In this document: positions 22,627 to 64,000 of the stretch, in pieces | How the letters are laid out: every line of letters begins with the position of its first letter | Position numbering within the stretch: the stretch's first letter is position 1 | Assembly (NCBI GenBank): GCA_963723235.1 | Contig: CAVRPV010000006.1 | Span: forward strand, 304,914-368,913 | Length of the DNA: 64,000 nt | Reading direction: 5' to 3' | DNA from: an uncultured delta proteobacterium | Lineage (GTDB): Bacteria; Desulfobacterota; WTBG01; CAIYCZ01; CAIRTM01 | The notes under the pieces: generated by a model | Databases searched by the model: none | What the model saw: the letters and a program-made list of their open reading frames with translations, nothing else | What the model was told of the DNA's origin: nothing | Program-made: the position numbers and the translations under genes

Positions 22627-22640
22627 GCTGCACGTACCTT

Positions 22641-34440: not shown

Positions 34441-35906
34441 TCATTTGTAGTCCGCCACCTCGATCTTCAGTCTGCCGATAAGGTTCAACACCATGAGCTG
34501 CTCCTCCATATCACCCTCGATAAATCTCACGTGGGTAACATCGGCCGGAAACTGGTTCAGGGTTGCGTCAACCGGCACCCAGTCGTTCAGATACAACTCA
34601 TTCCATGCATGGTAATAAAACCGGCCGCGCAAATAAACAAGCCCTGCAACCACACGGGTCGGTATTCCGGCCGCGCGGCACAGCGCCGCCAAAAGCACGG
34701 CATGCTCGTTACAGTCCCCCTGCCGGGCTGCGAGCACATCAAGTGCACTGGGCATGCCCGGAATCGGCCGTTTCTCGATATTTTTATAGACCCATTCATG
34801 CAAGCGGCGCGCCAGCTTCAACGCGCCGGGCTCTCCTTCGCCGATAACCTTGACCAGATCGGCAAATTCTCCGCGATCGCTTTGAATCAGCAGCGACGGC
34901 GCAAGCCAAGCTTCAAAACCCCTGCCCTGTAAACGGCAGCGTGTAGGAATTTTTACGACCGAGGTTCTGCGCCGAGATAGTGACGACATTGCCCTGCAGG
35001 GTCTGCTGGCCGCCGTCAAGCTGAAAACCCTTCAGATCGACATTAAGCAGCCGGAGACTCAGCGAACTGAGGCTGCTGCTGTAAAACGGCGTGTCAACCT
35101 CAATGGCCGCAGTCTCCACCATGTCAACCCGCTCGCCCCAGCCGCCATGCATGGCCTGCTCCCTGTCCTCGCGCAGCGACACCATGCCGGTGGGGCTCTC
35201 CTCCTTCACGGTTCGGCCCTGCTGGTCTATCCAGGCAGTCATCGTGACGCCCATGTAGGTGACCTGCATACGATAGCAGTCATACTCCTGCCCGGCCACG
35301 CTGAGTGTTTCGCGATCCTGTACCTCGATGCTTGCCGTGCGGTTACTCATGGTCATGGGGTCAAATACAACCCGCTCATACACAGAGCCGGGCCGCAGAC
35401 CTTCCTTCATGAGACTGTATTGAAGGGCGTTTGTGATAACCGGAGCGCTGGTGAGCTGCAGTTTTTTTTTCTCGGTTTTACCGCCGCTCACCACGGAAAG
35501 GCTCATCAGATTGTCGGCATCAATATCACCATAGGCGATAAAGCTGAGCCGCACCGGTGTTGATCCGCAAACTGAAAACCTGAAGATTAAATGCGTGGTC
35601 CGTGACCGTGTTAACCTGGGCCATGGTTTTCTGGGCAACCCCCATCATGGCCATGTCAAGCATGATGGTGTGATGTATCTGATAGCCGTCTTCAATGCGC
35701 TTGAGGGAATTGTGGGTATAGCCGATTTTCTGCCCCTGGAAATAAACACCGGCCCACTCCTCGATGTTTTCAACAGTAGCGCCCATGAAATGATCATCAA
35801 AGCTCAGTGAAGCGCGGGCCCTGAACTGTTTGCTGACCAGCAACGCCACCATCACCAGCCAGAAAACTACCGCGCATGTGCCTGCAATTCGGTAAAGACG
35901 TTTCAT
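34441..35906 (-). CDS. Membrane-anchored transglutaminase-like protein (two frameshifts)
   Basis: GDCNEHA..LAALCRAAGIPTR, YYHAWNE, WVPVDAT Cys-His-Asp triad in the 3' fragment. Confidence 0.85.
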
Positions 35907-44947: not shown

Positions 44948-45540
44948 GTATGATAGGAAAATGCATTGTCTGAGCTGTTTGACTAGATCATTTTAATTTT
45001 ACAAAGCTTACTACAGTAATTTTTAAAGACGTTCATCTTCAGCTCAATAGTTTTGCCAGCCTTTTGGCAGACGATAAGAATGTGTCGCCAGCTAAATTGC
45101 TGAGCGATTATGAGCGCACCGCCGGAGAAGCCTAGATAGCCTCCATGATATACGATGGATCATTAAATAAGCATACTGCGAATAAACTCTGCATCTCAGA
45201 AAATACTGTCAGGCATCATGTAACGAGTGTGTAAAATAAAGGTTGAAAGCCGTATCAGCTTAATCAATATGAAACGGGAAACAAGATTATTATCTAAACC
45301 ATTGCCTCTGCCGCACATAGGCCCTTTCGTGCCTGAAATATAGACCTTGGTGCTATTGTATTATCTGTTGATAGCGTATATCTTTACCTATACCAACAAC
45401 TGGTATTCGTTATATGTCTTCAAAAGGTTGTGGTCCTTAGAGCACTATGACTAACAGATGGGTGTGTATGATAGGAAAATGCATTGTCTAAGCTGCTTGA
45501 CTAGATCATTTTAATTTTACAAAGCTTACTATAATAATTT
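44948..45540 (+). repeat. About 75-bp direct repeats (44948-45022, 45466-45540)
   Basis: GTATGATAGGAAAATGCATTGTCT.AGCTG.TTGACTAGATCATTTTAATTTTACAAAGCTTACTA occurs twice. Confidence 0.85.
45095..45280 (+). pseudogene. Degenerate LuxR-type HTH remnant
   Basis: Reads ERTAGEA*IASMIYDGSLNKHTANKLCISENTVRHHVTSV*NK, matching the LuxR G..NK.IA..L.ISE.TV..H pattern with in-frame stops. Confidence 0.6.
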
Positions 45541-45774
45541 ATATTTATTTACATACTAAATAGTAATAATTAACACTTTAGATTTAAAATATTAAACTTC
45601 TTATTCATTAAAATCGAATAAAAATTAATTGTATTTTTTAGAGGCAATCTATATTTTTTTATTGATATCTATTGATAACATTGGCTTGATTTTTTAAAAA
45701 AAGAAAAAACCGCTTGAAAAAAAAAATTTATAGTCTAAATAGGTAGATAGACCAATAATACTTTTTGTTAAATA

Positions 45775-45866
45775 ATTAGTTTGAAAAAAGCCAAACCAGT
45801 CGTGAGGCTGGGACGGAAAGCCACGGGTTTTATACATTGATATAAAATAGCCGGGTTACCAAACAA
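45775..45866 (+). ncRNA. GEMM-I (c-di-GMP-I class) riboswitch aptamer
   Basis: AAG CC AAA CCAGTC GTGA GGCTGG GAC GG AAAGCC ACGGG...TAGCCGGGTTACC; G at the Vc2 G20-equivalent position. Confidence 0.9.
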
Positions 45867-45889
45867 TTGGTAGCCCGGCTATTTTTTTT
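45846..45889 (+). terminator. Riboswitch expression-platform terminator
   Basis: ATAGCCGGGTTACCAA/TTGGTAGCCCGGCTAT plus T8; overlaps the aptamer 3' strand (ON-switch geometry). Confidence 0.85.
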
Positions 45890-46419
45890 GTTTCGCGGTT
45901 TCTGCTATCGTCCTATTGGATCAGGAGGATAGAGTTTTTTATCTTTATTATTTATACTGGCTTGACTGTCGGTAGCATATAGTGAACCTCAAGCATGCTA
46001 TTGTATGCCTTGTGGTTGTATAGTGCATCACTACGTAGCAACAGTCAGTCTAAATTAACTCAAGTTCGTGACTAAGTCCAAAACCGGCAACCTTTTAATG
46101 GTTGTTCGGATCGGGTTTTTTTCTTTTTTTCTATATCCTGATGGCTATTTGGTTTTAACTCTTTACGTTTCATTTATCGGCTTATAGAGACAAAGCTTAA
46201 GAAAAAAAAGCAGCTATGTAAAAAAATATTTCCGGCGGTAAATTATGATCACAAGTTTCTTGGCTATTGCAGGGGGAAAAATATTTTTTAAACGTTCCTT
46301 TTCGCCTGTTTTCATCACCATGAAAAGGATGGGCCTGGAATATGAGGAGCAGGGAACGCATCTTAATTTTTGTTTTATGAGCAGCATTTGAATTCTGACA
46401 ATCATGAAAAGAAGAAATT

Positions 46420-46548
46420 ATGGAAGACCAGAAGAAGCGCTATGAAACACCGGCAATCATCACCCATACGGAGGAGGAAATCGCCAGCAGAATCGGGCCG
46501 GCGCACAAGGTACCCTCGGGGGGCCCTCCCGGCATTGAGTACCCGTAA
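46420..46548 (+). CDS. Putative RiPP precursor A1: MEDQKKRYETPAIITHTEEEIASRIGPAHKVPSGGPPGIEYP
   Basis: Manual translation; YxxPxI leader motif; two paralogues in the locus. Confidence 0.75.
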   Translation: MEDQKKRYETPAIITHTEEEIASRIGPAHKVPSGGPPGIEYP

Positions 46549-46604
46549 TAGCAACTGCATCTTGCAGGCTTAATAAATTTTTTACCCATTAGGAAGGGCT
46601 TTTA

Positions 46605-46799
46605 ATGGAAAAAAAACAATGGCTGCAACAATGGCTGGAGAAACGTTCCTACACGAAAGAGGATGTCCTTCACATAGCCGGAAAAAGGCTGCCGGAGACA
46701 CCAGATAGGCCATATACGGACCATGATATAGTCAAGATACTCGGCCCGACGTCCTGCGCTGAGAAACCCAGTGTGCCTTCCGGCACGCAATATCGGTAA
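46605..46799 (+). CDS. Putative RiPP precursor B1 (64 aa)
   Basis: AGGAAGG RBS; paralogue at 55915..56103; two YTxxD(I/V)xxIxG motifs. Confidence 0.7.
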   Translation: MEKKQWLQQWLEKRSYTKEDVLHIAGKRLPETPDRPYTDHDIVKILGPTSCAEKPSVPSGTQYR

Positions 46800-46937
46800 C
46801 CGCAACATTAACCGGGAGATTTTAACAAGCCCACATAGCAATGACATTTTCATACGGAGAACTCTTTATGAAAAAGATTTTTTTCTGCCACTTGTAGCAG
46901 CATTTTTAAAATGCCAAAGGAGAGGAGGTATTGCAGA

Positions 46938-47033
46938 ATGAAAGAACAGTATGAAAAGCCTAAAGTTGTAGAAATTGATTTGGAGGAATCTTTCAGTTTT
47001 GGACGGCCGCCTGTTAGCCCCATTATGCCATAA
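46938..47033 (+). CDS. Putative RiPP precursor C1: MKEQYEKPKVVEIDLEESFSFGRPPVSPIMP
   Basis: AGGAGG RBS; YEKPKV leader motif; tandem copy 177 bp downstream. Confidence 0.8.
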   Translation: MKEQYEKPKVVEIDLEESFSFGRPPVSPIMP

Positions 47034-47114
47034 AGAGCAATTTGGATGTTGGTTGCGATTAACTTTTTAAGAGTTTTAAACAGTGTTCCATTAGACAAAA
47101 GGAGGTATTGCAGA

Positions 47115-47204
47115 ATGAAAGAACAGTATGAAAAGCCTAAAGTTGTAGAAATTGACCTGGAGGAATCTTTCAGTTTTGGGCGGCCGCCTGTTAGCCCTCT
47201 TTGA
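47115..47204 (+). CDS. Putative RiPP precursor C2: MKEQYEKPKVVEIDLEESFSFGRPPVSPL
   Basis: AGGAGG RBS; differs from C1 by synonymous changes and the C-terminus only. Confidence 0.8.
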   Translation: MKEQYEKPKVVEIDLEESFSFGRPPVSPL

Positions 47205-47261
47205 TTGATTATCGTTCATGGTGATATCTCCAAAGAATTGTGTCAATACTTGCGGGTGTGA

Positions 47262-48155
47262 ATGCAGACACACGTAACGACCGGTTTTGGCGGTTATGTT
47301 GTGCGGTTTGTTTGTGAAGATGCAGGGGTAGTGGATCTTCTTGATTTGCACTTCCGTGAACACGTGACCGACGCAGAGCCGGATGTCACGCTTGCTATGA
47401 GGGTTGTTGCGCCGGGTGTGATCGCGAAGGTTGATGATCTTTCTGAATCGTACTATGCTTTTTTTGATCAGGGGACCGTCAATTTTGGCCCCAACCTGCT
47501 TGAGGGGCGCTGGGATTTCGACAGTAAGATATTTACCCTGAAGGTCAGCCGCGAACTCATGGTGCAGGAGGAGTTGTGGCTTTTTGACCGGTTTTTATGC
47601 AGGCTGTATTATACCCTGGTGATGAGGGACAGGCGCCGAAGCTCCAGGCCGTTGATTGTACATTGTGCAGGGGTGGTCCGCGATGGCAGGGGCTATATTT
47701 TCTTCGGTCCCCCGGGAAGCGGAAAAAGCACGGCAGCCGGCCTGTCCAGACACTATCATATCATGCATGATGATATGAACATTGTGACCTTGGACGGTGA
47801 CCGGGTGCAGGTTCAAGGTGTTCCCTTCAACCCGAAGCTGATCGAACGCACCAATGTCGGCGTGCCCCTGTCGATGATCTGTTCGCTGCATCAGTCAGCT
47901 GCGGTACGCCTTGAACGGGGAACACAGGATGAGTTCCTGCAGAAAGTCGTACCGGAAAATTTTCTGCCGCTGCCGCTTTTCACCAACGATCGCAAGCATG
48001 CTTTTCAGTACTTGTTGGCATGCCTCAGGGACTTGAGTCGGCAGGTACCCTATTACCGCTTGTATTTTAAAAAAGACGAAAGCTTTTGGGACCATATCGC
48101 AACAGTGGAGGTTTTGCATGGACAACATTCAGCAGATGTACATCAAAAGAATTGA
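47262..48155 (+). CDS. HPr-kinase-related P-loop protein 1
   Basis: VHCAGVVRDGRGYIFFGPPGSGKST...MHDD...GVPF. Confidence 0.8.
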   Translation: MQTHVTTGFGGYVVRFVCEDAGVVDLLDLHFREHVTDAEPDVTLAMRVVAPGVIAKVDDLSESYYAFFDQGTVNFGPNLLEGRWDFDSKIFTLKVSRELMVQEELWLFDRFLCRLYYTLVMRDRRRSSRPLIVHCAGVVRDGRGYIFFGPPGSGKSTAAGLSRHYHIMHDDMNIVTLDGDRVQVQGVPFNPKLIERTNVGVPLSMICSLHQSAAVRLERGTQDEFLQKVVPENFLPLPLFTNDRKHAFQYLLACLRDLSRQVPYYRLYFKKDESFWDHIATVEVLHGQHSADVHQKN

Positions 48156-48415
48156 AGACAATGCCGTCTGGACGAAGCTGGACAAGGGCACCATGATTAT
48201 TATGACAGCGGATATAGGAAAAGGTGCTGGACCTCAACAAGACAGCGGCCTGTCTCTGGGAAAAGAGCGATGGCTCGCAGACGGTCGGAGCGCTTGTGGA
48301 ACACCTGTGCCAGACGTATGACGTGGACGCGGAGGCCGCACTCGCTGACGTCATTGATTTTATTGAGGCTATGAAAAAGAAGAACCTGCTCGCGGTTTCA
48401 GAGGCTGCGATATAA
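48118..48415 (+). CDS. PqqD-family RiPP recognition element (frameshift near 48222)
   Basis: GGAGG RBS; MDNIQQ...MIIMTADIG joins LDLNKTAACLWEKSDGSQTVGALVEHLCQTYDVDAEAALADVIDFIEAMKKKNLL, a classic PqqD pattern. Confidence 0.85.
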
Positions 48416-48441
48416 CGCCGCGCCAAACGGAGTGTCCCTGC

Positions 48442-49587
48442 ATGAAATCACGTGTCAGTGCATGCATGATCGTTAAAGACGAGGAGGCGAACCTTGCCCG
48501 GTGCCTCCGCAGCATCCGAGGCGCAGTTGATGAAATAATCGTGGTCGACACGGGCTCCCGCGATGCAACCGTCGAAATCGCCCGATCCTTCGATGCACAT
48601 GTATACTTCTGCCCCTGGGAGGATAATTTCTCCATTCCCCGCAATGTGTCCATCGAGCATGCGCAGGGGGAGTGGATTTTCTTGATCGATGCCGATGAAG
48701 AGCTGGAAAGCGCTGCACGGGACACAATCCAAAAACTTGTATGCAACAATACCCTGCTTGGGTACTCCGTGCTCATAGAAATGCATCCGGACTTTACCCC
48801 GATGAGGAGTCTGCGTTTGTTCAGGAATATGCCTTCCTTGCGTTTTAGAGGGGTCTTTCATGAAGAGTTGACAGTACCCCGGGACAGCGCCGACAGGGTC
48901 ATGCCTGCCGACATACGGATTATTCACACACCTTTTAATCAGGAAATAACAGACAGGAAATATGAGCGCAATGTCACGCTTTTGCGCAAGCATCTGAACG
49001 AATACCCTGATGATGCGTATCAAATGCTCGATCTTGCGCGGCTATACCTGGGGAAGGATGCCGCGGCTGAGGCTGAAATACTTTTGCAGCGTGCCCGCGG
49101 GATTATTCTCGACCATACTCCATCGTACAGCAGGCAGAAGCTGGAGGTGTGCCGTTCTTTTTATTATTCGCTGCACTACGGATGTTTGTTGCAAAAAAAC
49201 AGCGATATCCGGGAGCGCCTGACAGTGTGCCGGGAAGCCATTGAGACCCTGCCGGAATGCCCCTTGTTTTATTATCATGCGGCCAACCTGTATTATGCAT
49301 TGCAACAGTATGAGGCGGCCATCGGGCATTTTGAGAAATGCATTGCATTTGGAAAGCAGCCGGCACGTGATGTGACCATTTTGTATCCCCGCGAGTGTCT
49401 CAGCAGTCTCCCTCTTGCCGGTTTGGGATATTCTTTATTCAGGGAAAAAAAATATATGCAGGCCACCCGCTATTTTAAGGCATCCCTTGCATACAAACAG
49501 GATCATGCCATTGATGTAATGTTAGCTTCGGCATCACTGCTTGCAGAAAAAGCCGAATGCACTGCCGGCAGCCTTCCGCGCCCATGA
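48442..49587 (+). CDS. GT2 glycosyltransferase with C-terminal TPRs (SunS/flagellin-GT-like architecture)
   Basis: SACMIVKDEE, DTGSRDAT, WEDNFS..RN, WIFLIDADE, FRGVFHE, then TPR-like helices. Confidence 0.88.
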   Translation: MKSRVSACMIVKDEEANLARCLRSIRGAVDEIIVVDTGSRDATVEIARSFDAHVYFCPWEDNFSIPRNVSIEHAQGEWIFLIDADEELESAARDTIQKLVCNNTLLGYSVLIEMHPDFTPMRSLRLFRNMPSLRFRGVFHEELTVPRDSADRVMPADIRIIHTPFNQEITDRKYERNVTLLRKHLNEYPDDAYQMLDLARLYLGKDAAAEAEILLQRARGIILDHTPSYSRQKLEVCRSFYYSLHYGCLLQKNSDIRERLTVCREAIETLPECPLFYYHAANLYYALQQYEAAIGHFEKCIAFGKQPARDVTILYPRECLSSLPLAGLGYSLFREKKYMQATRYFKASLAYKQDHAIDVMLASASLLAEKAECTAGSLPRP

Positions 49588-50999
49588 ATCATCATCTCCC
49601 GGTTTATTTCGGTCGGTTCGCGCTCGCTATAGTATCTCCCTCAAAATCGGTCATTGATCATCTGCGGCTATTCTTTGCCGGGTATGAATGTGGTCGGAAA
49701 GCCACTGCCACCCTGCATATTCTCACATCCAGAGATTTGCCTCCTCCCCGGGAACAGCTGTTATCCAAGCAGTGGACCGCTTTGGCAGTGCATGACAATG
49801 GGTTTGAAATAGGTCCCAATGTGATACAGGGAAGAATTCTACCGGATCAGTGTACCTTCATTATTACGGTGCATGAAGATTTGTTTTTGCCGGGACTTGC
49901 AAATGTGATCAATGCTTTTTTTTACCGTCTCTACTATACCTTGTGCGCTCTCAACAAAACTCACAGCTGCATTATCCATGGTTGCGGCGTGATGCGCGAT
50001 CAGATCGGCTATCTGTTTATCGGGCCGCATCACTCGGGGAAAACAACCATCGGACTGTTATCAGGCGCCCCCATTCTGCATGATGATCAGATGATCCTCA
50101 CGCTTGAAGGCGACACGCTTACCATGGACAGCCCGCCGCTACCGGCGCGGGATAATCTCAGGCAGCGGCCCGAAGCGCCCTGTGTACTCGAAAGGATTTT
50201 CCTTGCGGTAAAGGATGAACAGTTCTCTGTCAGGCAGCTCGCTCCGGAGCATGCGGTGGCGTGCCTTTATAATGATGTTGTGATGCCCCATACGCTTCTC
50301 TCCGTTGCTGCGAACGCGGCCCGCATGCGCAAGGCGCAGTTGTGTTTTGCCCTTCAGCGGGCAGTACCTGTGTTTGAGCTGCATTTTGACAGGCAGGGGC
50401 AATTCTGGGAACAGCTCAGCACGATGCAATGGCCTATATCGATAAATGAGCATACAATTGATACAGCCGGTGATAGGCCGAAGAGATTTGTCAGTCGTGT
50501 ATGGCTTGAGCAGTATCAGCAGTCGGGCGCCGGAAGCTTAACCATTCTCAGCGGGAGCATGGCGCCGCTGATCAATACGGGGGATCAGATTTGTGTCCGC
50601 AAAACGCCGCTTGACCGTATCCATATCGGCGACATCATTACTTTTTGGAAAGGGGGGGAATTGATTACTCATCGCGTCATACGTACATGCATCAGAGAGG
50701 GAGGAGTATGCTTTGTGGAGCGGGGTGACAAGCATCCTCATCATTCTTTCATTGATGCAGCATCGGTCATCGGCAAGGTAGCCAGGATCAATAAGGGCAG
50801 CCATAGTGTTGAGATGCACAAACTGCACTGGCAGATATTTAACCGAACTGTCGGAGTTCTGTTTTTAAGCATCTTTTTTTTACGCCTCCTGGCCCGGCGT
50901 ATTCCATTTCTTCCCCAGCAGGTTAAAGGTGGCGGCAATAAAATTTTAACTGTTCTGACGAGAATAAAAAACAAAGCTCTTAATGCTCAGTTCAGGTGA
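49584..50999 (+). CDS. HPr-kinase-related P-loop protein 2 fused to an S24/S26-family peptidase
   Basis: IHGCGVMRDQIGYLFIGPHHSGKTT...LHDD; C-terminal SGSMAPLINTGD...GDIITF...ITHRVI...RGD; ATGA overlap with the GT gene. Confidence 0.8.
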   Translation: MNHHLPVYFGRFALAIVSPSKSVIDHLRLFFAGYECGRKATATLHILTSRDLPPPREQLLSKQWTALAVHDNGFEIGPNVIQGRILPDQCTFIITVHEDLFLPGLANVINAFFYRLYYTLCALNKTHSCIIHGCGVMRDQIGYLFIGPHHSGKTTIGLLSGAPILHDDQMILTLEGDTLTMDSPPLPARDNLRQRPEAPCVLERIFLAVKDEQFSVRQLAPEHAVACLYNDVVMPHTLLSVAANAARMRKAQLCFALQRAVPVFELHFDRQGQFWEQLSTMQWPISINEHTIDTAGDRPKRFVSRVWLEQYQQSGAGSLTILSGSMAPLINTGDQICVRKTPLDRIHIGDIITFWKGGELITHRVIRTCIREGGVCFVERGDKHPHHSFIDAASVIGKVARINKGSHSVEMHKLHWQIFNRTVGVLFLSIFFLRLLARRIPFLPQQVKGGGNKILTVLTRIKNKALNAQFR

Positions 51000-51069
51000 A
51001 ACAAACGAGACTTGCAAAGCTGGCTGCATCCTGTAAAGTAATAATGAATGATGTCATCTTGAGTCTAAC

Positions 51070-51175
51070 ATGGTCCCCATAATAGAACTACAGAACATCT
51101 CTAAATATTACCCGAAAGCGGCGGGGGTATCGCGGCTTATAATCCCCAAAATTGAGGGGGGCAAAGCCCTCACCT
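51070..51175 (+). pseudogene. Truncated N-terminus of an ABC ATP-binding protein
   Basis: MVPIIELQNISKYYP...KAL then similarity is lost before Walker A. Confidence 0.45.
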
Positions 51176-51254
51176 TATGCAGGTTGTGGCCTTCACAGTT
51201 GAATAATGTCTCGCCAAAGGCCGCGCTCGCAAGGCCGATGAGCAGCTATTCAAA

Positions 51255-51395
51255 GAATGTCAGATAGGCCTCCTTGAATCGCATCTTCCGTACCTCCTGC
51301 AGCATTTCTGTCCGTTTCATGAGTCACCTCCAGCAGTGACTCTAAACCGGACAGTTCATGTGCTACAAGACCGGACAGATTATAAACTCCCAACA
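51255..51395 (-). mobile_element. IS1202/ISNCY-like IS end plus transposase 5' fragment
   Basis: Minus strand starts TGTTGG, has two CTGTCCGG repeats, then GGAGG and MKRTEMLQEVRKMRFKEAY. Confidence 0.65.
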
Positions 51396-51551
51396 CAAAG
51401 GAAAAAGCAATTGACCGCCGCACGCAAAAATCGTATAGATTGTTGGCAGTCACAACCGTTAACCAACGGCGGCTTGTAGTGTTTTAAAATCGTTTTGGCG
51501 ACATTAACTAAAAATCGAGGCGCTCTTCAAAGCACAAAAAAGTAGCCCACA

Positions 51552-52706
51552 ATGACAGCCAAGCAAACTTCAATCTACGCACTCATCGCTGGAAATCATT
51601 CTGATGGTCCTTTGAATGATGACGTACTGAAGGTCTTATATGATCACAACCTTTTACCTTATTTCTTTTCTAGTAACAGGGCATTTCCCGTTGAACTTCA
51701 GAAAACCAGACGGACTATTCTGATAAAACAGCAGCTTGTATATCAGTTGGCTTGTAGGGACTTGGTGCAAGTGGTTGAGGCTTTGGAAGCAGTCGGTGTT
51801 GAATACCGGGTGTTGAAAGGAATCGCAATTGCTCAGACCTATCCTTATCCATATGCAAGGAGCATGGGAGATCATGACATTTGTGTCCATGTTGAGAATT
51901 TTGATCAGGCAATAGTGGCTATTGCGTCATTAGGATATCAAAGGAGCGAAAGGGAAGATACAGAAAGTGACGTGGGCTTTTTCAAAGAGGGCCACCTCAA
52001 AATCGAACTTCACAGACAATTGTTCGACCATGGTCGTGTGCGTAATGGCGAGGATTTGCTGCATGAGCTTTGGGCAGATGCTTTCGAGATCATGGTAGGC
52101 AGCAAGGTTATTCTTGTTCCTCAAATAGAGACTCATTTTAAATATTTAATCATTCACATGTTGAGGCATCTGATATATACAGGAATTGGCATCCGGAATT
52201 TGATAGATATTGTTCACTTTAGTACAGTTCACGCTGTTGACTGCAAATCCTATCAAACCTATTTTGATGACTATGGCTATGGTGCCTTTTATAGAGCGAT
52301 TATCTCGATCTGTGTCTATGAATTAGGCATGAAAATAGATGATCATTCCTGGCTATATAATAAAGAGGAATTGGTGATTAGAGATTTGTCATCGTATATT
52401 CTCCAAAGTGGCGCTTTTGGTGGTAGCGATGAAGCGCTTATCAGAGAAATTTATACCCGGCTTTTGAAACCCAATCAAAAAAACCATGTGTTTATAATAA
52501 TATTGTCGTCTCTATTCCCAAGTTCAAAAGCGATCGGTGCTTGCTACAGTTATGTGACTAAATGGCCTGTGCTGCTTCCTGTAGCATGGGTACACCGATG
52601 GCTTAGGTTCACTTTAAAGACCAAACTCTATGTGATCACAAAGACTAAGAATAGCTTTGTTATAAAAGATCGCTTGATGAAGGGTTTGGGTTTGCATGAT
52701 TATTGA
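51552..52706 (+). CDS. Nucleotidyltransferase family protein (NTP_transf_5-like)
   Basis: VLKGIAIAQTYPYPYARSMGDHDICV, IELH, IHMLRH..GIGIRNLIDI, LLPVAWVHRW. Confidence 0.85.
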   Translation: MTAKQTSIYALIAGNHSDGPLNDDVLKVLYDHNLLPYFFSSNRAFPVELQKTRRTILIKQQLVYQLACRDLVQVVEALEAVGVEYRVLKGIAIAQTYPYPYARSMGDHDICVHVENFDQAIVAIASLGYQRSEREDTESDVGFFKEGHLKIELHRQLFDHGRVRNGEDLLHELWADAFEIMVGSKVILVPQIETHFKYLIIHMLRHLIYTGIGIRNLIDIVHFSTVHAVDCKSYQTYFDDYGYGAFYRAIISICVYELGMKIDDHSWLYNKEELVIRDLSSYILQSGAFGGSDEALIREIYTRLLKPNQKNHVFIIILSSLFPSSKAIGACYSYVTKWPVLLPVAWVHRWLRFTLKTKLYVITKTKNSFVIKDRLMKGLGLHDY

Positions 52707-52959
52707 AGCTTACACCGCCCCTGTTTTATAGTTTGCCCATCTCAAAACAAGTTCCGATCAAGAAGGCCGTTGCCGTTTCCCGTGGGGCAGAGGGAAACTC
52801 AGCATCACATGCAGGCATGTAGCTGTCCTTCAGGTACTGGTTTGCTGCCCTCATTGTTGTGATCTCCAGTTTTGCCAATTCGTTTGTACGCCGACGGCAC
52901 AGCTATAACTGCATGAGCGAAGGACTGAATCCGGTTCTGTCTGCTCACCTCCTGTACGT

Positions 52960-54135
52960 CTACAAATTATCTATCATGTCCCCCATCATGGATAAATGTC
53001 CGGGCTCTAATGTGTAACAATTTACATTCTCGACAATTTTTCCGACAGTCAATAACATCGAGGAAGCTTTCCCGGCAGATTCATTAAAGAAACTGGTGCC
53101 CGGAGAACGGTTGATCATATGGGTCAGGATTCGAAAGCAGGCTTCGGACTTTGGCAATTGCCGTATCTGCGGGTTCTGTTCAAAACATGGTTTTTTATCC
53201 TCAACAATTGTGACCCCGAGTATTTCACACTCATACCTGCTCCAGATATCCTGGTAAAATGCCATTAGGGATTTTTTATCAGGTGCTCTGAATCTGTATG
53301 CGGGATATCCGTGAGTCAGCACTTCATATGCCATCTCAACATCAGGATGCCGCGACAGCCTGTCAAGCAATCCCTGGTGGTGGTTCAAAAGCATGAGATC
53401 AAAATAACATCCACGACTGGCTTGCTCTGCCTGCTGCGCAACGCTTTCTACAAGCAGGATGATATTTTTGGGTGCGCATCGTTGCCCTTGACTTGCAGGG
53501 AACAAATCAGCGGGATCTGCAAAATACTTGCCTTCAAAATCAAGATAAAAAGCCTTCTGCGTATCAACCAACCCGTAAAAAGGGCTGTTCTCCTTTATGC
53601 CAACCCTTCTGGGAAAAGGGTCAAGGCAATAGTCATGTTTTCTTATAAGACAAAACTCATCGGATAAAAACTGATAGCCGCGTGACAACAGCTCAAGCAC
53701 CAAAGTTGTTTTGCCGAATCCAGATGGCGCTATGATTACCGTACCATTATTTTCCTTCGAGACAACACCCGCATGAATAAGGATGTAGTCACTGATCATC
53801 GGCATAATCCGCGTGAAAATTATCTGCTCGGCAAGGCCGCTGATTTTTCTATCGGAGGGTAAGTGCGCAGCGAACCCGTTACTCTGGATGAGCAACGGAC
53901 CATGATGAAATCGATTTTTTTTCAAAATATAGAAGGTAAGACACGTTTCCGGAAGTTTTTGACACATAAAATTTTTATACACTTGGCTAAACGCAGCAAA
54001 GCTGTCCTGACAGTCAGCGTACAGTTCGAGACCGACATTAAAAAAATTAAAAACACGCCGATACGGAGCCTGCTTTTGTATATCCTGTCGATCTGATGGA
54101 GTTAAATTAATCTGCATATCCTGTAATGCTATCAC
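52960..54135 (-). CDS. HPr-kinase-related P-loop protein 3
   Basis: LIHAGVVS...IIAPSGFGKTTLVLELLSRGYQFLSDEF...PFPR. Confidence 0.82.
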   Translation of the reverse strand: MIALQDMQINLTPSDRQDIQKQAPYRRVFNFFNVGLELYADCQDSFAAFSQVYKNFMCQKLPETCLTFYILKKNRFHHGPLLIQSNGFAAHLPSDRKISGLAEQIIFTRIMPMISDYILIHAGVVSKENNGTVIIAPSGFGKTTLVLELLSRGYQFLSDEFCLIRKHDYCLDPFPRRVGIKENSPFYGLVDTQKAFYLDFEGKYFADPADLFPASQGQRCAPKNIILLVESVAQQAEQASRGCYFDLMLLNHHQGLLDRLSRHPDVEMAYEVLTHGYPAYRFRAPDKKSLMAFYQDIWSRYECEILGVTIVEDKKPCFEQNPQIRQLPKSEACFRILTHMINRSPGTSFFNESAGKASSMLLTVGKIVENVNCYTLEPGHLSMMGDMIDNL

Positions 54136-54154
54136 ATATTGTTGATAAAATGAC

Positions 54155-54200
54155 TTAAAAAATCCATGGGATTATACTCCGTTTGTATAATCCCATGGAT
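54155..54200 (-). terminator. Intrinsic terminator
   Basis: Perfect 16-bp stem ATCCATGGGATTATAC/GTATAATCCCATGGAT with a T run on the minus strand. Confidence 0.75.
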
Positions 54201-54306
54201 AGGCATGAAACTTATTTTTTTTGCATCAGTCTATAAGCATATATCCTGACACACTATACTACACTACACGAATCTTCCCCTCTACCAGAGGCACGTCTAC
54301 CACCGA

Positions 54307-54412
54307 TCAGGGCAGTTCAATGCCGCGGGGATTCTCTTACAGTAAAACCCGATGCAGGGCACCGCATCATAAATGCTGCTGCGATAATTGGCAGAATAAT
54401 AATCTTACGCAT
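54307..54412 (-). pseudogene. Internally deleted duplicate of the secreted protein gene
   Basis: MRKIIILPIIAAAFMMRCPASGFT matches the N-terminus of 54674..55846; joined out of frame to ENPRGIELP*, matching its C-terminus KNPIGIELD*. Confidence 0.7.
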
Positions 54413-54480
54413 AGTATGTCCTCGTTATAAGATTGGTATGGCTTTCGATAAACCCGTGAAAATATCAGGTTACTAGAGCT

Positions 54481-54609
54481 TTACGGGTACTCAATGCCAG
54501 CAGGGCCTCCCGAGGTTACCGTATGTGCCGGCCCGATTATGCTGGCGATTTCCTCCTCCGTATAGGTTATGATGGCTGGCGTTTCATAGCGCTTCTTCTG
54601 GTCTTCCAT
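54481..54609 (-). CDS. Putative RiPP precursor A3: MEDQKKRYETPAIITYTEEEIASIIGPAHTVTSGGPAGIEYP
   Basis: Manual translation; AAGGAGGAG RBS. Confidence 0.8.
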   Translation of the reverse strand: MEDQKKRYETPAIITYTEEEIASIIGPAHTVTSGGPAGIEYP

Positions 54610-54673
54610 AACTCCTCCTTTGAAAAAGATATGTTTATACAGTGTTGTAAAAACCTCACCATAACTATTGCCA

Positions 54674-55846
54674 TCAATCTAATTCAATGCCGATGGGATT
54701 CTTGATCTTCGTCTGTTCTTCTGCTGTTACTGTCTTCTGGCTTCGAGCTTTGTTTTTACGGGGTGGTTTGTTATCCTTATCTATGCGATACTTGAAATAC
54801 ATCGCCCAATTACCGTGGAATTTTTTGAAGCGCTTACCGGCACCCCAGGCAGTCTGCTCATCGCAGATTTTCTGCTCGCAGGGAAGCGGCACAGGTATAA
54901 TCACGGGCTGGGCGGGCAGGCCCTGGACGTCAAACGGCTGCAATACAACGCCAACAAACTCCGTGCAGCCCGGCTCATAAAAAAAACCGTATTCTTCGGC
55001 GCCAGCGAGGATTTCAGCCACCTGGCAGCGTGAATACGGGCCCAGACTCAGGTTGCTGTTCTCATCATCAATCAGGGTCCAGATAGCCCTTTGAACCGAA
55101 CCATACGTATAGACCGGAAGATCAGGGTTGCATTGTGTCGGCTTGCCGACAAACTGCTGATTCAAAATCCAGTTGATCTTGTCGAGATTCCCCGGGAAAT
55201 CAACCAGACCATCCGGAAGCGTTGCATAGCTAGAGAAGACATTTGCATTGTACTGCACTCCTTCCGTTATACCAATCGACGTTGAAAGGCACCATCCGTC
55301 ATGGGTGCCCGTAAGCAGATCATCAGCATCGGCAACATCAATTGCGGGGAGATACGCCGGGCCATCGAGATAGGGATCGTTCGTGGTCATCGTTGCTTCT
55401 GCGGGAAGCGTGCCAGCAAAAAGAGCAAGATCAGGATCCTCATACCCGCAGATAGACCCCACAACAGCGTGTGCCGCAATATAGACACACTTAGTGCGCG
55501 AAGACCAACGCAATGGAATTGTATACATGTGCTCGGTTGCGCAGTCGAGCTCATCCTGGAATTCAAACTTTTCGGGTATGGGGTGGAAGAATAGCTGCGG
55601 TATTAACCGCGGGCTGCATTCGACAGCAAGGTGCGTCTCGCGCAAACACCAACCAGAATCAGTGATCACATACTTCACGTACATGTTCGTGTCATCATTC
55701 CAGACACGGACTTCACCGACTGTGATGTGCTGGCCTGCGATCAATGGAGTGACAAACGGGGAGGCTTCTGTTGCAGTAAAGCCCGATGCAGGGCACAGCA
55801 TCATAAAAACTGCTGCTACAATTGGCAGAAAAATAATCTTACGCAT
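54674..55846 (-). CDS. Secreted Cys-rich protein with a thioester-domain-like insert
   Basis: Signal peptide; LIAGQ..VGEVRVWND..WCLRETHL domain; insert with GWCLS, KINWILN, VQRAIW, AQPVII. Confidence 0.75.
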   Translation of the reverse strand: MRKIIFLPIVAAVFMMLCPASGFTATEASPFVTPLIAGQHITVGEVRVWNDDTNMYVKYVITDSGWCLRETHLAVECSPRLIPQLFFHPIPEKFEFQDELDCATEHMYTIPLRWSSRTKCVYIAAHAVVGSICGYEDPDLALFAGTLPAEATMTTNDPYLDGPAYLPAIDVADADDLLTGTHDGWCLSTSIGITEGVQYNANVFSSYATLPDGLVDFPGNLDKINWILNQQFVGKPTQCNPDLPVYTYGSVQRAIWTLIDDENSNLSLGPYSRCQVAEILAGAEEYGFFYEPGCTEFVGVVLQPFDVQGLPAQPVIIPVPLPCEQKICDEQTAWGAGKRFKKFHGNWAMYFKYRIDKDNKPPRKNKARSQKTVTAEEQTKIKNPIGIELD

Positions 55847-55914
55847 ATTATGTTTTCCTTATAAAATTGTCAGTGACATATTGACTTGTTAGAATCTCCC
55901 GGTTAATGCTGAGA

Positions 55915-56103
55915 TTACGGAGATTGAGTGCCTGAAGGCCCACTGGATGTCGCAGCGCAAGGCGTCGGGCCGAGTATCTTGCCTATATCCTCTTTCATGC
56001 TATCAGGTTCAAAGTATGACCTGTTACCGGCTATTTTGAGGATATCCTCTTTCGTGTAGGACCTTTTTTCCAGCCATTGTTGCACCCATTGTTTGTTGTC
56101 CAT
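55915..56103 (-). CDS. Putative RiPP precursor B2 (62 aa)
   Basis: MDNKQWVQQWLEKRSYTKEDILKIAG...KEDIGKILGPTPCAATSSGPSGTQSP; paralogue of B1. Confidence 0.7.
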   Translation of the reverse strand: MDNKQWVQQWLEKRSYTKEDILKIAGNRSYFEPDSMKEDIGKILGPTPCAATSSGPSGTQSP

Positions 56104-56159
56104 AAAAAGCCCTTTCTAAATGGTGAAATATTCATTACATATGCAAAATACAGTTGCCA

Positions 56160-56294
56160 TTACGGATGCTTAATGCGGCGAGGGTGAGGGCCGCCCGAGG
56201 TACAGGTAAGTGCCGGCCCGATTATGCTGGCGATATCCTCCTCCGTATAGGTGATGATTGCTGGCGTTTCATAGCGCTTCTTCTGGTCTTCCAT
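56160..56294 (-). CDS. Putative RiPP precursor A2: MEDQKKRYETPAIITYTEEDIASIIGPALTCTSGGPHPRRIKHP
   Basis: Manual translation; AAGGAGGAG RBS. Confidence 0.8.
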   Translation of the reverse strand: MEDQKKRYETPAIITYTEEDIASIIGPALTCTSGGPHPRRIKHP

Positions 56295-56830
56295 AACTCC
56301 TCCTTTACATGATTGTTAGAATTAAAATGCTGGACATAAAACAAAAATAAAGATGCGTTCCCTGTTCCACTTATCTCAGGCCCCTCCTTTACATGGCAAT
56401 GGAAACAGTCGAAAATTGCCGTTTAAAAAATTTTTTCCTCTGCAATAGCCAAGAAACTCGTAATCATAATTTACCGCCGGAAATATTTTTTTTCGTATCT
56501 GCATTTTTTGCTTAACCTTTGTTTCTATAATCCGATAAATAAAACGTACAGGGTGAAAATTAAACAGCCATCAGTCTATATAAAAAAAGAAAAAGAACCT
56601 CATTCGGACAACCATTACAAGGTTGCCGGGTTTTAGATTTAATAACGGATTTGAGTTAGCTTAGACTGACTGTTGTTTCAGTGATGCACAATACAACCCC
56701 GAAGCATATAATCGCATGCTTCGGGTTCACTAAATGCCGCCACAGTCAATACAGTACAAATAATAAGAGAACATAAAAAGCCAGACGCTATCGCACTGAT
56801 GCCATAGACCGATAGCAGAAACCGTGAAAC

Positions 56831-56940
56831 AAAAAAAACAGCCGTACTGCCAAGTTCAACTTTGGCAGCCCGGCTGTTTTTTTTAAAAACCCTTGGCTTT
56901 CCGCGCTATCCCAAAGGATAGGTTGGCTTTTTCAGTTTGA
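56831..56940 (-). ncRNA. Variant GEMM-I riboswitch with overlapping terminator
   Basis: Minus strand AAG CC AAC CTATCC TTTG GGATAG CGC GG AAAGCC AAGGG...CAGCCGGGCTGCC, then TTGGCAGTACGGCTG-T8. Confidence 0.75.
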
Positions 56941-60374: not shown

Positions 60375-61421
60375 TCATATTATGCGCACAAGCGCCCGGG
60401 CAGGATCACGGGGCAGCACCTGGCCGATATGCTCGGCAAGATCACCTGCCTCAAGGAGCATATCGCGCGCCTGCGCTAGCTTTTTTCAGGAACCGACAGG
60501 ATGAGGCCGCCTGAAGTCTGCGCGTCAAACACAAGATCGACAAGCACAGGATCAGCCTGCGGCGGCAGGGAGACCAGCGAGTGACAGTAGGTTTTATTTG
60601 CCGCACTGCCGCCCGGTAACATCCCCATCCCGGCAAGCTCGATTGCCTCGGGCATGAACGGAATCCTGTCAAGCCACAGCTCAACAGCCACGCCAGAGGC
60701 CTTGGCAAGTTCAAGCACATGACCGCCAAGGCCGAAACCCGTCACGTCCGTGGCTCCCTTGCAGGCCAAGCGTTCGGATAACCGCAGCGCCCGCCCGGTT
60801 AAGCCTGGCTGCCCACCTGAAAATCAGCTCCTCGATTTTTGCGGTGTCGCCGAACCCGGCCTTGAGCGCTGTTGCCAGAACGCCCGTGCCGATCGGTTTT
60901 GTCAGCAGCAACTGATCTCCCGGCCTGAGGCCCCGGTTGGACGCAAACGACGCAGGATCGACGATGCCCGTCACCGAAAGGCCGTACTTGATCTCATTGT
61001 CTTTGACGCTATGGCCGCCGGCCATTACCGCGCCCGACTCACGGATCTTTTCAAGACCGCCTGCAAGAATCTGACGCAGCACCTCCCTGTCCATCGTCTG
61101 GATCGGAAAGCACACAATGTTCATGGCCGTATAGGGTTCGCCCCCCATGGCATAGACGTCGGACAGCGAGTTTGCGGCCGCTATCTGTCCGAACCAGTGC
61201 GGGTTGTTGACGATGGGGGTCAAAAAGTCGAGGGTCTGCACAAGCGCTTTGCCCTCGGGAAAGCGAACAATGGCGGCATCCTCGTTGTCGCCGGGCGCGC
61301 TCAGCAGCCGCTCGTCATGCAGGTCGCTGAAAACACTCAAAACGTCCTCCAGGTCCCCTGGAGAAATTTTTGCCGCTCAGCCTGCTGAGGCAACGGTTTT
61401 TACAAGCTCAAGACGATCCAT
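60375..61421 (-). CDS. selD: Selenide, water dikinase; selenoprotein (UGA codon 15) with two frameshifts
   Basis: MDRLELVKTVASAG-U-AAKISPGDL, EDAA, QTLDFLTPIV, AAANSLSDVYAMGG, GGHS, TDVTGFGL, DAQTSGGL. Confidence 0.92.
61347..61379 (-). promoter_or_regulatory. Sec UGA and candidate bacterial SECIS hairpin
   Basis: TGA at 61379-61377, followed after 13 nt by CTCCAGG-GGA-CCTGGAG. Confidence 0.75.
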
Positions 61422-61749
61422 GGAACATGCTTTCTGAAAAAGACGGTAAGGGTCCCGAAAACACTCATGTCTGTCTGCATCAGGCCCTGTTGTGGAAACA
61501 TATTCGCCCGTACCCCGACAGGTGTCAAGAATTTTTCACACGATTTCTTTAACGTGTCCCGGCATAACCATAGATTGGCAAAACCTATACCTGAGTGGTG
61601 TTGCATTGATATTATCACATTGACATCACCCTGTATCTGAACCACAACTATACGCAGACTCAAAATGTATCATTACGATCGGCTATCGTTGGACTGACGA
61701 GGCTATATCACGATACGAACATGTTATTAACCTGAGAAAGAAACACACC

Positions 61750-62172
61750 ATGGAAACAATGGCACTCAATGAACGCGGGCTTGCAGACGCGAAAACAACA
61801 ACCGAAGCAGACACGAATGCGTGCCGCTCAACCAATGCCGACGAGATCGTCTATCTCTTTGATACCGACTATATCGGCTCGAACATGGAGCTCGGCAAGG
61901 TGCTGGTCAACGGTTTTTTGACCGCAGCCCTCACGCTACAGCACACGCAGTGCACGATTGTGCTCATCAGCAATGCCGTGCGCCTTGCGACAAAAGGTTC
62001 CTATGCCCTTGACGTGCTGTCAAAACTTTGCGCGAAAGGATACCGGATTCTTATCTGCGGGACCTGCCTTGACTTTTTCAAGATACGCGCTGACGTGCAG
62101 GTCGGCACAATCTCCAACGCACTTGAAATCATGCAGGTTATGACAGAAGCGGGAAAAGTGGTAAAGTTCTGA
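61750..62172 (+). CDS. YedF/DsrE-like selenium/sulfur relay protein
   Basis: IGSNMELGKVLVNGFL, ILICGTCLDFF, VGTISN; divergent from selD. Confidence 0.8.
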   Translation: METMALNERGLADAKTTTEADTNACRSTNADEIVYLFDTDYIGSNMELGKVLVNGFLTAALTLQHTQCTIVLISNAVRLATKGSYALDVLSKLCAKGYRILICGTCLDFFKIRADVQVGTISNALEIMQVMTEAGKVVKF

Positions 62173-64000
62173 CCCTGTGTACGAGGATGTTTACAACGAT
62201 CGAATGTTTTTTATGCCGAGTTCCTTTGAATTTTGCCTCTGTAAGCATGCCGTCGGCCTGCCAGCCCCGGGCACGATAATAATCCTCAAGCATGACGCCG
62301 ACCGGCGGCAGATGTTCGGCAGCCGGGCCGCAGCCCCGCATGCTGCCGGTAAACCGTTCATGCAGCCTGTCGGCAGAAGCAGCGCAGCCCTGCCTGAGAT
62401 TCACCACATGCTTTACCGCGTAGCTGCGCTCGCCTGCAAGCATAAGCGATGCAAAGTCATGCTCCATGCCCGTGGCAAGGTTCAGCCACTCCACCACCTG
62501 CCGCGCCGTAACGCCGGTGAATCCGTCGGCAGAGTAATACTGCGCATAGCCGGCATGGGAAAATGCGCACAGCACAAGCGAGTTGAGCACCGTGGCATAA
62601 TTCTGGCCCCGCGCAACAGTCCGGCCCGTGCCCTCAACGGCAAACCGCACCGCCTGCATGTCCATAAGGTCAAAGCCCTCGATACCCGGATCTGCTGCGC
62701 CCGTATGGTTTGCCCCGCGCGTATCGGTGGCATAGGCAAGGGCAAGAAAATTATGCGCCCGCGGATCATGGGCAGGCGCCTCAAGGCCTTTCACCTCTAT
62801 GGCGAAACGCTCCGCACCGCCGCCGATCAGCGCGGCAGCCCCGCGCACACCTTCTGCAAGCACAGCGCCGAAGCCCTCGCGCATGCAGATTTTTTCAAGC
62901 ATGGCAAGCGCGGCCTGCCCGTTGCCGAATGACATGATCAATGCCGTCGGTATCCTTGAGCGTAATCAGGCCTTCGGCAAAGCATTCCATGGCAAATGAA
63001 ATGACACCCCCGGCGGATATGCTGTCGACCCCGTAGCGATTGCACAGGTCATAGGCCTTCTGCACGACGCTGCATGTCGGTTATGCCGCACTGCGACCCA
63101 AGCGGCGCGATAGACTCCCATACATTCAAACGCCTGCCGCCATGATCGACATTGGACTCGACGCATCCCGTGGGGCAGCCTGCGCATTGATAGGGGCGCT
63201 CATGCACAGCATGCTCACCGATCTCCCGCAGCACAGCTTCCTCGAAACCCGGCAAATCGCCATCGCGCCAGTTATTGACGCCATGCCGGCCATCCCGGAC
63301 GAACATGGTAAAAACCCTTGAGGCTTTTGCCGCACAGTGCTCGGGGGTTTTCACCATCTGCGGCAGAAACTCCCGTATGGACCGGATAAGCTTTTCGGCA
63401 TGGGCAACCTCAACCGGATGTGTTCCCGGCCACGGCAATTGCCTTCAGATTCTTTGAGCCCATGACCGCACCCATGCCGCATCGTGCCCGCAGCGCGCGC
63501 TGCCGGGCCATCGCTCATGACAGAGGCAAACCGCACAAGGTTCTCACCCGCCGGCCCGATGGCCGACACCTTGAAGGCATCGCCGCAGCGCCTTCTGATC
63601 TCGGCTTCAGTCTCAACCGTATCACAGCCCTGTAGAAAGGCTGCATCTTCGATTGTTGCCGTGCCGTCAGTGACTTGAAGAAAAACAGGCCGGTCGGCCC
63701 TGCCGGTAATGATAAGCCCGTCAATGCCCGCTTTCTTCAGCGCAGCGCCCCAGGTGCCGCCGGCAAAGGCCTCGCCCCAGATACCGGTCAGAGGCGACAG
63801 GGCCGCTACGCAGTGCCTGCCGCTCCAGGGCACCATGGTGCCGGTGAGCGGGCCGGTCATAAAAAAAAGCGGCGCTTCAGGAGCAAAAGGATCCGTTTTT
63901 ACGGGAACCATTTCATCCATAAGCGCCGCAGCAAAGCCCACGCCGCCGATATGCCGCTCAGCCATCTGCTTCGGTGTTTCGCGCACCGCAACAATGCGGT
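62138..64000 (-). CDS. Aldehyde ferredoxin oxidoreductase family protein (frameshifted, 5' end outside window)
   Basis: TGPLTGT, LSPLTG..GE..AGG, LKKAGIDG, IGPAGENLVRFA, CAGCPTGC, VKGLEAPAHDPR, DTRGANH, YYRARGW; 3' end approximate. Confidence 0.88.

Follow-up and report, generated by a model that had tools for sequence, protein, structure and literature searches.

Two riboswitch aptamers of the GEMM-I class (c-di-GMP-I, the class that binds cyclic diguanosine monophosphate, c-di-GMP) are present in a 64,000-nt stretch of DNA from an uncultured delta proteobacterium (contig CAVRPV010000006.1, positions 304,914 to 368,913). We refer to this whole stretch as the window and give all positions in its coordinates. 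The aptamers lie on opposite strands, both pointing inward, and between them is a cluster of genes similar to those for peptides made by the ribosome and modified post-translationally (RiPPs). Both elements are real and belong to a well-known class. The left copy is canonical, whereas the right copy is a variant without the usual tetraloop and appears to be conserved in evolution. We favour, with a confidence only slightly beyond even, the explanation that these are two paralogous transcriptional c-di-GMP-I ON switches, differently tuned, each heading one arm of a convergent peptide cluster.

Two aptamers of the GEMM-I class

The whole window was scanned against Rfam with cmscan. The left aptamer was assigned to RF03167 (66.5 bits, gathering score 59, E 1.6e-13) and the right aptamer to RF01051 (45.5 bits, gathering score 35, E 1.1e-05 for the window). 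In a search of the whole assembly with RF01051, i.e. the c-di-GMP-I model, the left copy scored 70.2 bits against the gathering score of 35; both aptamers reach this gathering score and they are the only matches in the genome. At looser thresholds the right copy also gave 46.6 bits with RF03167, which is under that model's gathering score. No further family was matched at E<=1 between 45000 and 58000, and the scan of the window returned, in addition, five tRNA matches unrelated to the riboswitches. An earlier, sequence-only reading of this DNA had proposed one canonical and one variant GEMM-I copy and had named Infernal with RF01051 as the way to check them; the scores bear out the class membership of both copies, and the split between them holds up as well.

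Both copies fit the P1a, P2 and P3 helices of the class and have the AAA linker. The left copy is of the GYRA-loop type, with the loop GUGA and the internal loop AAA/GAC, whereas the right copy has the loop UUUG, the internal loop AAC/CGC and one A.G mismatch in P3, i.e. a GNRA tetraloop is present in the former and missing from the latter. Three of the six P2 pairs differ between the copies without any loss of pairing, and in two of these both partners have changed. The loops (GTGA and TTTG at the DNA level), the internal loops and the differing yet paired P2 are just as the sequence-only reading had described them.

The two aptamers were compared with 124 other aptamers of the same taxonomic class, aligned to a model built from 16 sequences. 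In this alignment 96.9% of the cells are paired and 18 of the 20 pairs have changed on both sides, which was reached by none of 500 shuffles. A GNRA loop is found in 116 of the 124 relatives (L161, an ambiguous case, is counted among them) and is missing from 8. The combination of UUUG and AAC/CGC occurs in the right copy alone among the 126 aptamers compared. The internal loop AAC/CGC is seen in none of the 124 relatives and AAC/TGC in 2, and even AAA/GAC is present in only 57; as judged from this alignment, the internal loop varies more in this class than one would expect from the published consensus. The true oddity of the right copy is the loss of the GNRA loop. The original description of GEMM, in its accessible text, calls the loop 'almost always' GNRA (PMC1950547), and in the Cd1 riboswitch the change of the tetraloop adenines to U abolished binding (PMC9262584).

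The predicted folds also differ. The minimum free energy (MFE) structure of the left aptamer is the GEMM-I fold (-25.6 kcal/mol, z -3.15). The GEMM-I fold of the right aptamer is about 9 kcal/mol weaker, at -16.3 kcal/mol, and its MFE structure is a different fold at -18.6 kcal/mol (z 0.14).

Conservation of the ligand pocket

The equivalents of G20, A47 and C92, of which we take A47 to be the intercalating position of the ligand pocket, are G, A and C in both copies; the G at position 20 of the left copy had been noted from the sequence before. The two copies further agree in the 5' junction (AAAAAG), in the AAA linker and in the C and the G that make the contact between the helices. The differences between them are confined to P2, the P2 loop, the internal loop and upper P3, i.e. 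they lie away from the pocket, and the nucleotides adjoining the ligand in the right copy are those of the left copy and of the canonical consensus.

According to the available passages of PMC6140456, G20 recognizes one of the two guanines of c-di-GMP with its Hoogsteen face, the second guanine being paired to C92, sensors of cyclic GMP-AMP (cGAMP) have A at position 20, and wild-type Vc2 binds cGAMP at about 10 uM only, as opposed to c-di-GMP at picomolar concentrations. At positions 20/47/92, 95 of the 124 relatives have G/A/C, 27 have A/A/C and 2 have G/A/T. Since A20 is common in the class, the G20 of both copies is informative: it differs from the A20 of the GEMM-Ib (cGAMP) type, and the retention of G20, A47 and C92 argues for c-di-GMP over cGAMP as the probable ligand of both copies.

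The name of the left copy's best Rfam model, c-di-GMP-I-GGC (RF03167), needs a comment. It is clan competition in cmscan that assigns the left copy, together with many class relatives, to this model. The RF03167 consensus has a G directly after the 3' strand of P1a, i.e. at the A47 position in Vibrio cholerae numbering, and we assume that the 'GGC' of the name includes this G. Both copies, like all 124 relatives, have A at this position, so the label would reflect lineage similarity and not the variant nucleotide. On the left copy it is probably misleading, as the kept G20, A47 and C92 argue against it. The passages of the literature on c-di-GMP-I-GGC that were available state nothing on the ligand of that variant.

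Another group of aptamers was observed in the alignment. Six of the 8 class aptamers without a GNRA loop (L152, L160, L164, L165, L167 and L169, perhaps joined by L161; RF01051 32-49 bits) form a sub-group with A20, the internal loop AAT/AGC and the loops TTAA, TCAA or TCAC, found in three genomes of one genus (G003, G011 and G014). Judging by its sequences, this recurrent sub-group may represent a separate cGAMP-type variant, able to fold with no tetraloop dock.

Terminators and leaders

Each aptamer overlaps a predicted intrinsic terminator hairpin, of -30.5 kcal/mol (z -7.6) in the left copy and -33.1 kcal/mol (z -7.2) in the right copy. None of 200 shuffles was as good as either hairpin, a U-tract follows each, and the left one is also listed by a simple terminator scan. 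The 5' arm of each terminator is the 3' half of the aptamer, i.e. the 3' strand of P3/P1. Only one of the two structures, aptamer or terminator, can form at a time, from which it follows that ligand binding should permit read-through. As judged from these competing folds, the geometry is that of an ON switch in both copies, and the sequence-only reading was right on this point. A terminator-overlap ON model has been proposed for GEMM in the accessible part of its original description (PMC1950547), and ON switching was demonstrated for the pilM riboswitch (PMC9262584).

The terminators are followed by leaders of about 530 nt, and the first open reading frame (ORF) begins 555 nt (left) or 566 nt (right) past the aptamer. 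The leader folds are close to those of shuffled sequences (z -2.0 left, -1.5 right) and an Rfam scan of the leader at E<=1 gave no match. Several candidate functions were considered and rejected. A hidden ORF finds no support: 46142-46288 is the only open frame that persists in both copies, and it lacks a start codon in the left one. At about 46085-46135, and at the equivalent place in the right copy, a hairpin is followed by a T-run. It could be taken for a second terminator, but its predicted stability is low (-14.2 kcal/mol with z -1.2 on the left, -12.5 kcal/mol with z -1.6 on the right) and it is absent from the list of the terminator scan. A second sensor is likewise not supported, as only 2 of 48 predicted pairs change on both sides in the comparison of the two copies and Rfam has no match. 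A BLASTN search with 45700-46800 against 60 relatives found no leader homolog; the matches were to the aptamer/terminator part and, in one same-genus contig, also to the peptide genes.

Upstream, the block ATACTTTTTGTT precedes both aptamers, and no motif common to the regions upstream of 81 anchored aptamers was found. A 78-nt direct repeat (44948-45025 and 45466-45543, 94% identical) is located in the spacer that separates the left riboswitch from the tRNA genes. Of four public sequencing runs, all available as contigs, two from RNA libraries have contigs that match 46179-46392 and 46930-47141, and a contig from a relative matches 47169-47641; being contigs, these data cannot show transcription, starts or ends. 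No RNA contig matched the aptamers or the beginning of the leader, from which nothing can be concluded. One further RNA contig, at 45785-45821, was discarded as it is unlike the window on both flanks and belongs to another GEMM-I.

Inverted duplication and conservation of the right aptamer

The two riboswitches are parts of an inverted duplication of about 1.1 kb (~45770-46884 and 56940 back to 55830) that brackets the RiPP-like cluster. The duplicated unit consists, in this order, of the aptamer, the terminator, the ~530-nt leader and the small ORFs A and B. The identity between the left and right arms is 55% upstream of the aptamer, 70% (54/77) in the aptamer, 60% in its P2 hairpin, 81% in the 3' arm of the terminator, 81% and 84% in the leader and 84.5% in ORF A. 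From these identities the two copies are paralogs, and the aptamers are more diverged between the copies than the sequence 3' of them.

Metagenome contigs were searched with a pattern in which 29 letters of the right aptamer were fixed and the loop was left free. The one contig found, L178, comes from a related organism and contains the orthologous right arm. Its upstream ABC transporter has 90.9% protein identity and 83.6% identity at third codon positions, and both sequences have a small ORF located between this gene and the switch. The identity is 63.8% in the upstream spacer, and 80.6% (195/242) and 78.7% (140/178) in the leader, but 82 of the 83 aptamer positions are identical, including the UUUG loop. 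Outside the letters fixed by the pattern, 53 of 54 are identical; the binomial probability of this is 8e-5 against a background of 80% and 1.6e-3 against 85%. Since the aptamer is nearly unchanged while the adjoining leader is ~20% diverged, the right variant is, by this comparison, conserved in evolution and not decaying. The left, right and L178 leaders are about equidistant (near 80%), which suggests that the duplication is approximately as old as the split of the two organisms and that the right type was already present at that time. The L178 sequence also bears on a pairing of the right P2 loop (CUUUGG) with CCAAAG at the 3' end of the aptamer, which we considered and dropped: L178 has CCAACG there.

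The gene cluster between the switches

The features of the region are listed in Table 1.

Table 1. The two riboswitches and the genes between them (window coordinates).
Feature	Position	Strand	Remarks
Left c-di-GMP-I aptamer	45781..45864	+	canonical
Left intrinsic terminator	45844..45893	+	19-pair stem and T-run
Left leader	45894..46419	+	non-coding as far as tested; 81-84% identical to right leader
Small ORF A1, 42 aa	46420..46548	+	putative precursor, YETPAII leader; three paralogs in window
Small ORF B1, 64 aa	46605..46799	+	putative precursor, single Cys; paralog B2; partial homolog in G001
Small ORFs C1 and C2	46938..47204	+	MKEQYEKPKVVEIDLEE...; tandem duplicate (direct repeat D3, 97% identical)
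HprK-like kinase	47262-48155	+	Pfam/NCBIfam
PqqD, 63 aa	48224-48415	+	57.8 bits, Pfam profile positions 12-67
SunS-like GT2+TPR glycosyltransferase	48442-49587	+	best NCBIfam match SunS peptide S-glycosyltransferase
HprK-like domain fused to SipW-like signal peptidase	49557-50999	+	TIGR02228 58 bits, above cut-off
NTP_transf_5 nucleotidyltransferase	51552-52706	+	Pfam/NCBIfam
HprK-related kinase, 391 aa	52960..54135	-	TIGR04352 62 bits, E 4.7e-17, cut-off 200; Hpr_kinase_C weak
Small ORF A3, 42 aa	54481..54609	-	A paralog
390-aa protein	54674..55846	-	N-terminal hydrophobic signal-like segment, C-terminal GIELD; no Pfam family
Small ORF B2	55915-56103	-	part of inverted duplication
Small ORF A2	56160-56294	-	part of inverted duplication
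Right leader	56295..56825	-	paralog of left leader
Right intrinsic terminator	56826..56885	-	
Right c-di-GMP-I aptamer	56861..56937	-	variant

The cluster contains three HprK-like kinases or domains, a PqqD, a SunS-like glycosyltransferase, a SipW-like peptidase and a nucleotidyltransferase. The left-arm enzymes (47262..52706) were identified by Pfam and NCBIfam matches that are mostly under the curated equivalog cut-offs; the glycosyltransferase, for instance, has 93 bits to SunS, far under the cut-off. Among the small ORFs, C1 and C2 each have AGGAGG ahead of the ATG. Small ORFs similar to the A-type peptides over residues 3-35 occur in 12 of the 401 genomes of a sample of the phylum, often in several copies and mostly in the same family and order. 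Small putative precursors with a conserved leader and a variable end thus stand beside a PqqD-type protein and tailoring enzymes, which is the general make-up of a RiPP cluster. From its gene content 'RiPP-like', the term used in the sequence-only reading, seems a fair description.

The composition is not that of a lasso-peptide cluster. No lasso cyclase or B2 protease is found among the cluster ORFs, and the cyclase family was not searched genome-wide; Transglut_core3 (PF13471) has a single match in the genome, to a general transglutaminase-like ORF at a distance of 11 kb (34441-35019).

Some further observations concern individual genes. The 390-aa protein ends with NPIGIELD and the A peptides with GGP(P/A)GIEYP, the end of A2 being altered and basic (RRIKHP). 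In the same-genus genome G001 (L006, 752-2117) the 390-aa ortholog and the adjoining A peptide both end with GVEFD. Such a C-terminal tag, common to a large protein and small peptides, suggests a possible common recognition or modification site. To our knowledge, the fusion of an HprK-like P-loop protein with a SipW-type peptidase (49557-50999) has no published description. Close to an AAAA run, the short PqqD ORF overlaps with an upstream ORF that is read in a different frame (48118-48321). A frameshift or an assembly error is conceivable here but finds no support, as neither Pfam nor tblastn points to an N-terminal piece in the other frame. A second locus in this genome (contig C10, L172) has a radical-SAM gene, a PqqD of 103 aa, an A-like peptide and an HprK-like kinase, and no riboswitch.

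Two observations were made in the window outside the cluster. A 731-aa ORF at 20449-22644 (-) contains a receiver domain, a partial sigma-54 activator domain and a full LpxC domain; this is an unusual fusion, or else two genes have been taken for a single one. At 60711-63986, right of the cluster, the N- and C-domains of an aldehyde ferredoxin oxidoreductase lie in separate ORFs and a gene related to AIR synthase is fragmentary, which suggests gene decay or assembly breaks.

Occurrence in other genomes

In the sample of the phylum, 41 sites matched the A peptides. GEMM-I was looked for at 30 of these, 26 of them from other genomes, and was present only at the two sites in the window. None of 5 loci from other phyla that encode relatives of the 390-aa protein had a GEMM-I. 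In one same-genus genome the B, A and 390-aa-type genes are located on a short contig cut by a transposase gene. Among the class relatives GEMM-I precedes its usual targets, namely genes for response regulators, for type IV and Flp pilins and for large proteins that are secreted. The genome studied here has 7 GGDEF-domain genes, from which we conclude that c-di-GMP is made.

Two unusual arrangements were seen among the other GEMM-I loci. At L004 (G037:C48) the aptamer is followed by four tandem small ORFs, each with MKEERIIIIDEGIDEVTP... and a CC-containing end, so that here, too, a GEMM-I stands ahead of repeated peptide genes. At L133 (G003:C36), L134 (G011:C47) and L141 (G011:C4) there are three GEMM-I in tandem with a spacing of ~310 nt and a terminator-like hairpin per aptamer, and no ORF is evidently common to the repeat units.

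Proposed mechanism and alternatives

According to the explanation that we favour, in the absence of ligand the 3' strand of P3/P1 would pair with the downstream sequence to form the intrinsic terminator, and transcription would end ~110 nt into the RNA. With c-di-GMP bound, P1 and P3 would be held, the terminator blocked, and the polymerase could continue through the ~530-nt leader into the peptide and enzyme genes. The right switch is presumably harder to turn on, because its GEMM-I fold (-16.3 kcal/mol) competes with the MFE structure (-18.6 kcal/mol). With a weaker aptamer fold and a stronger terminator, it would need more c-di-GMP or would switch less completely, and the c-di-GMP threshold would accordingly differ from one arm of the cluster to the other. 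Ligand binding, the ON response, the threshold difference and the read-through into the peptide genes are all parts of the mechanism that we infer from the sequence.

A number of points weigh against this explanation. The right copy does not have the GNRA loop shared by nearly all class relatives, a Cd1 mutant with U for the tetraloop adenines did not bind (PMC9262584), and the MFE structure of the right copy is not the GEMM-I fold. The conservation of the variant is based on a single ortholog, in which the identity of the loop alone (4/4) is non-significant (0.8^4 = 0.41). The first ORF is ~555 nt downstream of the aptamer, and a consensus scan found no promoter for the switch or for the peptide genes. 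In addition, GEMM-I was found within ~1.5 kb of none of the 26 A-like peptide loci of other genomes, and two same-genus genomes (96% and 100% complete) are without any GEMM-I; in what was searched, the link between switch and cluster is confined to this lineage.

The sequence-only reading had left it open whether the right copy is weakened, dead or re-specified. Of these, a weakened or retuned copy agrees with the missing GNRA loop and the weaker fold. It is unlikely, in our view, that the right copy senses no ligand and is kept as a fixed terminator or attenuator, or in another RNA role, with the left copy alone at work. The lost GNRA loop, the Cd1 mutants (PMC9262584), the A.G mismatch in P3, a GEMM-I fold 2.3 kcal/mol above the MFE and a terminator 2.6 kcal/mol stronger than that of the left copy would all agree with such a blind copy. 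A plain terminator, however, needs the hairpin only, yet practically the whole aptamer is unchanged in L178, and this includes the terminator-independent 5' part (J1, P1a, P2 and the AAA linker) next to a leader that is ~20% diverged. G20, A47, C92 and the inter-helix C/G pair are all kept as well. Since G20, A47 and C92 are kept, a right copy re-specified to cGAMP, another cyclic dinucleotide or some other compound is also disfavoured, and we hold it to be very improbable. All nucleotides adjoining the ligand agree with the left copy and the canonical consensus, position 20 is G where cGAMP sensors have A (PMC6140456, in its available passages), and it is P2, its loop and the top of P3 that differ, i.e. 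parts away from the pocket. What speaks for a new specificity is the periphery, unique among the 126 aptamers, the 70% identity of the aptamers as compared to 81-84% for the leaders, which would be expected after a functional shift, and the fact that GEMM-I variant classes are on record in Rfam (RF03167, RF03168).

The switches might also gate the leader only, as a c-di-GMP-dependent non-coding RNA, with the peptide genes expressed from a promoter of their own within the leader. The length of the leader and the hairpin with a T-run at ~46085-46135 and its right equivalent led us to consider this, but we give it little credence: the hairpin is weak and not listed by the terminator scan, the leader fold is barely above shuffles, no promoter consensus stands out, and the switch, the leader and the peptide genes were duplicated as one unit.

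A further-reaching version of the two-switch explanation is possible, though we think it doubtful. In this version the canonical and the GNRA-less aptamers would have evolved into a c-di-GMP gate with two thresholds on one biosynthetic cluster, the right type would represent a conserved GEMM-I sub-class without a tetraloop dock, and the cluster would be the first RiPP-like pathway shown to be under riboswitch control. If so, the right type would fold via a different tertiary contact or bind with much lower affinity, and the production of the modified peptide would be tied to the sessile, high-c-di-GMP state. The biofilm or surface role suggested in the sequence-only reading is, for its part, a guess.

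GEMM-I is among the best-studied riboswitch classes, and the tetraloop dock is held to be necessary for tight binding. A natural aptamer without this dock, nearly unchanged amid drifting surroundings and located beside a canonical paralog, offers a ready pair for studying the periphery versus affinity and threshold. The interest of the locus thus lies in the conserved GNRA-less paralog, in the two differently built switches on one cluster, and in the kind of genes they precede. If the leaders carry transcription into the peptide genes, a peptide natural-product pathway would join the c-di-GMP regulon. A full-text literature search for links between c-di-GMP riboswitches and RiPPs gave nothing related, as judged by title.

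Comparison with known systems

Both copies have the architecture of the known RF01051 riboswitches (Vc2 of Vibrio cholerae and Cd1 of Clostridioides difficile), i.e. the same three helices, the AAA linker, the G20/A47/C92 pocket and the inter-helix C-G contact. The right copy differs from them by UUUG in place of the near-universal GNRA and by AAC/CGC in place of AAA/GAC. The left copy was scored to c-di-GMP-I-GGC (RF03167), but differs from that model by A instead of G at the A47 position. The pilM-type GEMM-Ib ON switch of Geobacter follows the same logic of a mutually exclusive aptamer and terminator, in which the ligand leads to read-through (PMC9262584); it has A20, in contrast to the G20 of both copies here.

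With regard to the genes presumably controlled, the GEMM target gene families listed in the accessible text of PMC1950547 do not include small peptides accompanied by kinases, PqqD and a glycosyltransferase. The cluster itself is best compared with lasso-peptide clusters, in which, according to the available part of PMC8498205, an HPr-kinase homolog phosphorylates the C-terminal Ser of the precursor and a nucleotidyltransferase adds hexose. The paeninodin and pseudomycoidin clusters, as far as the same material describes them, likewise have an HPr-kinase homolog, a PqqD-type protein and a nucleotidyltransferase by small precursors. The present cluster differs from them in having no lasso cyclase or B2 protease among its ORFs, while a SunS-like glycosyltransferase and a SipW-like peptidase are present in addition.

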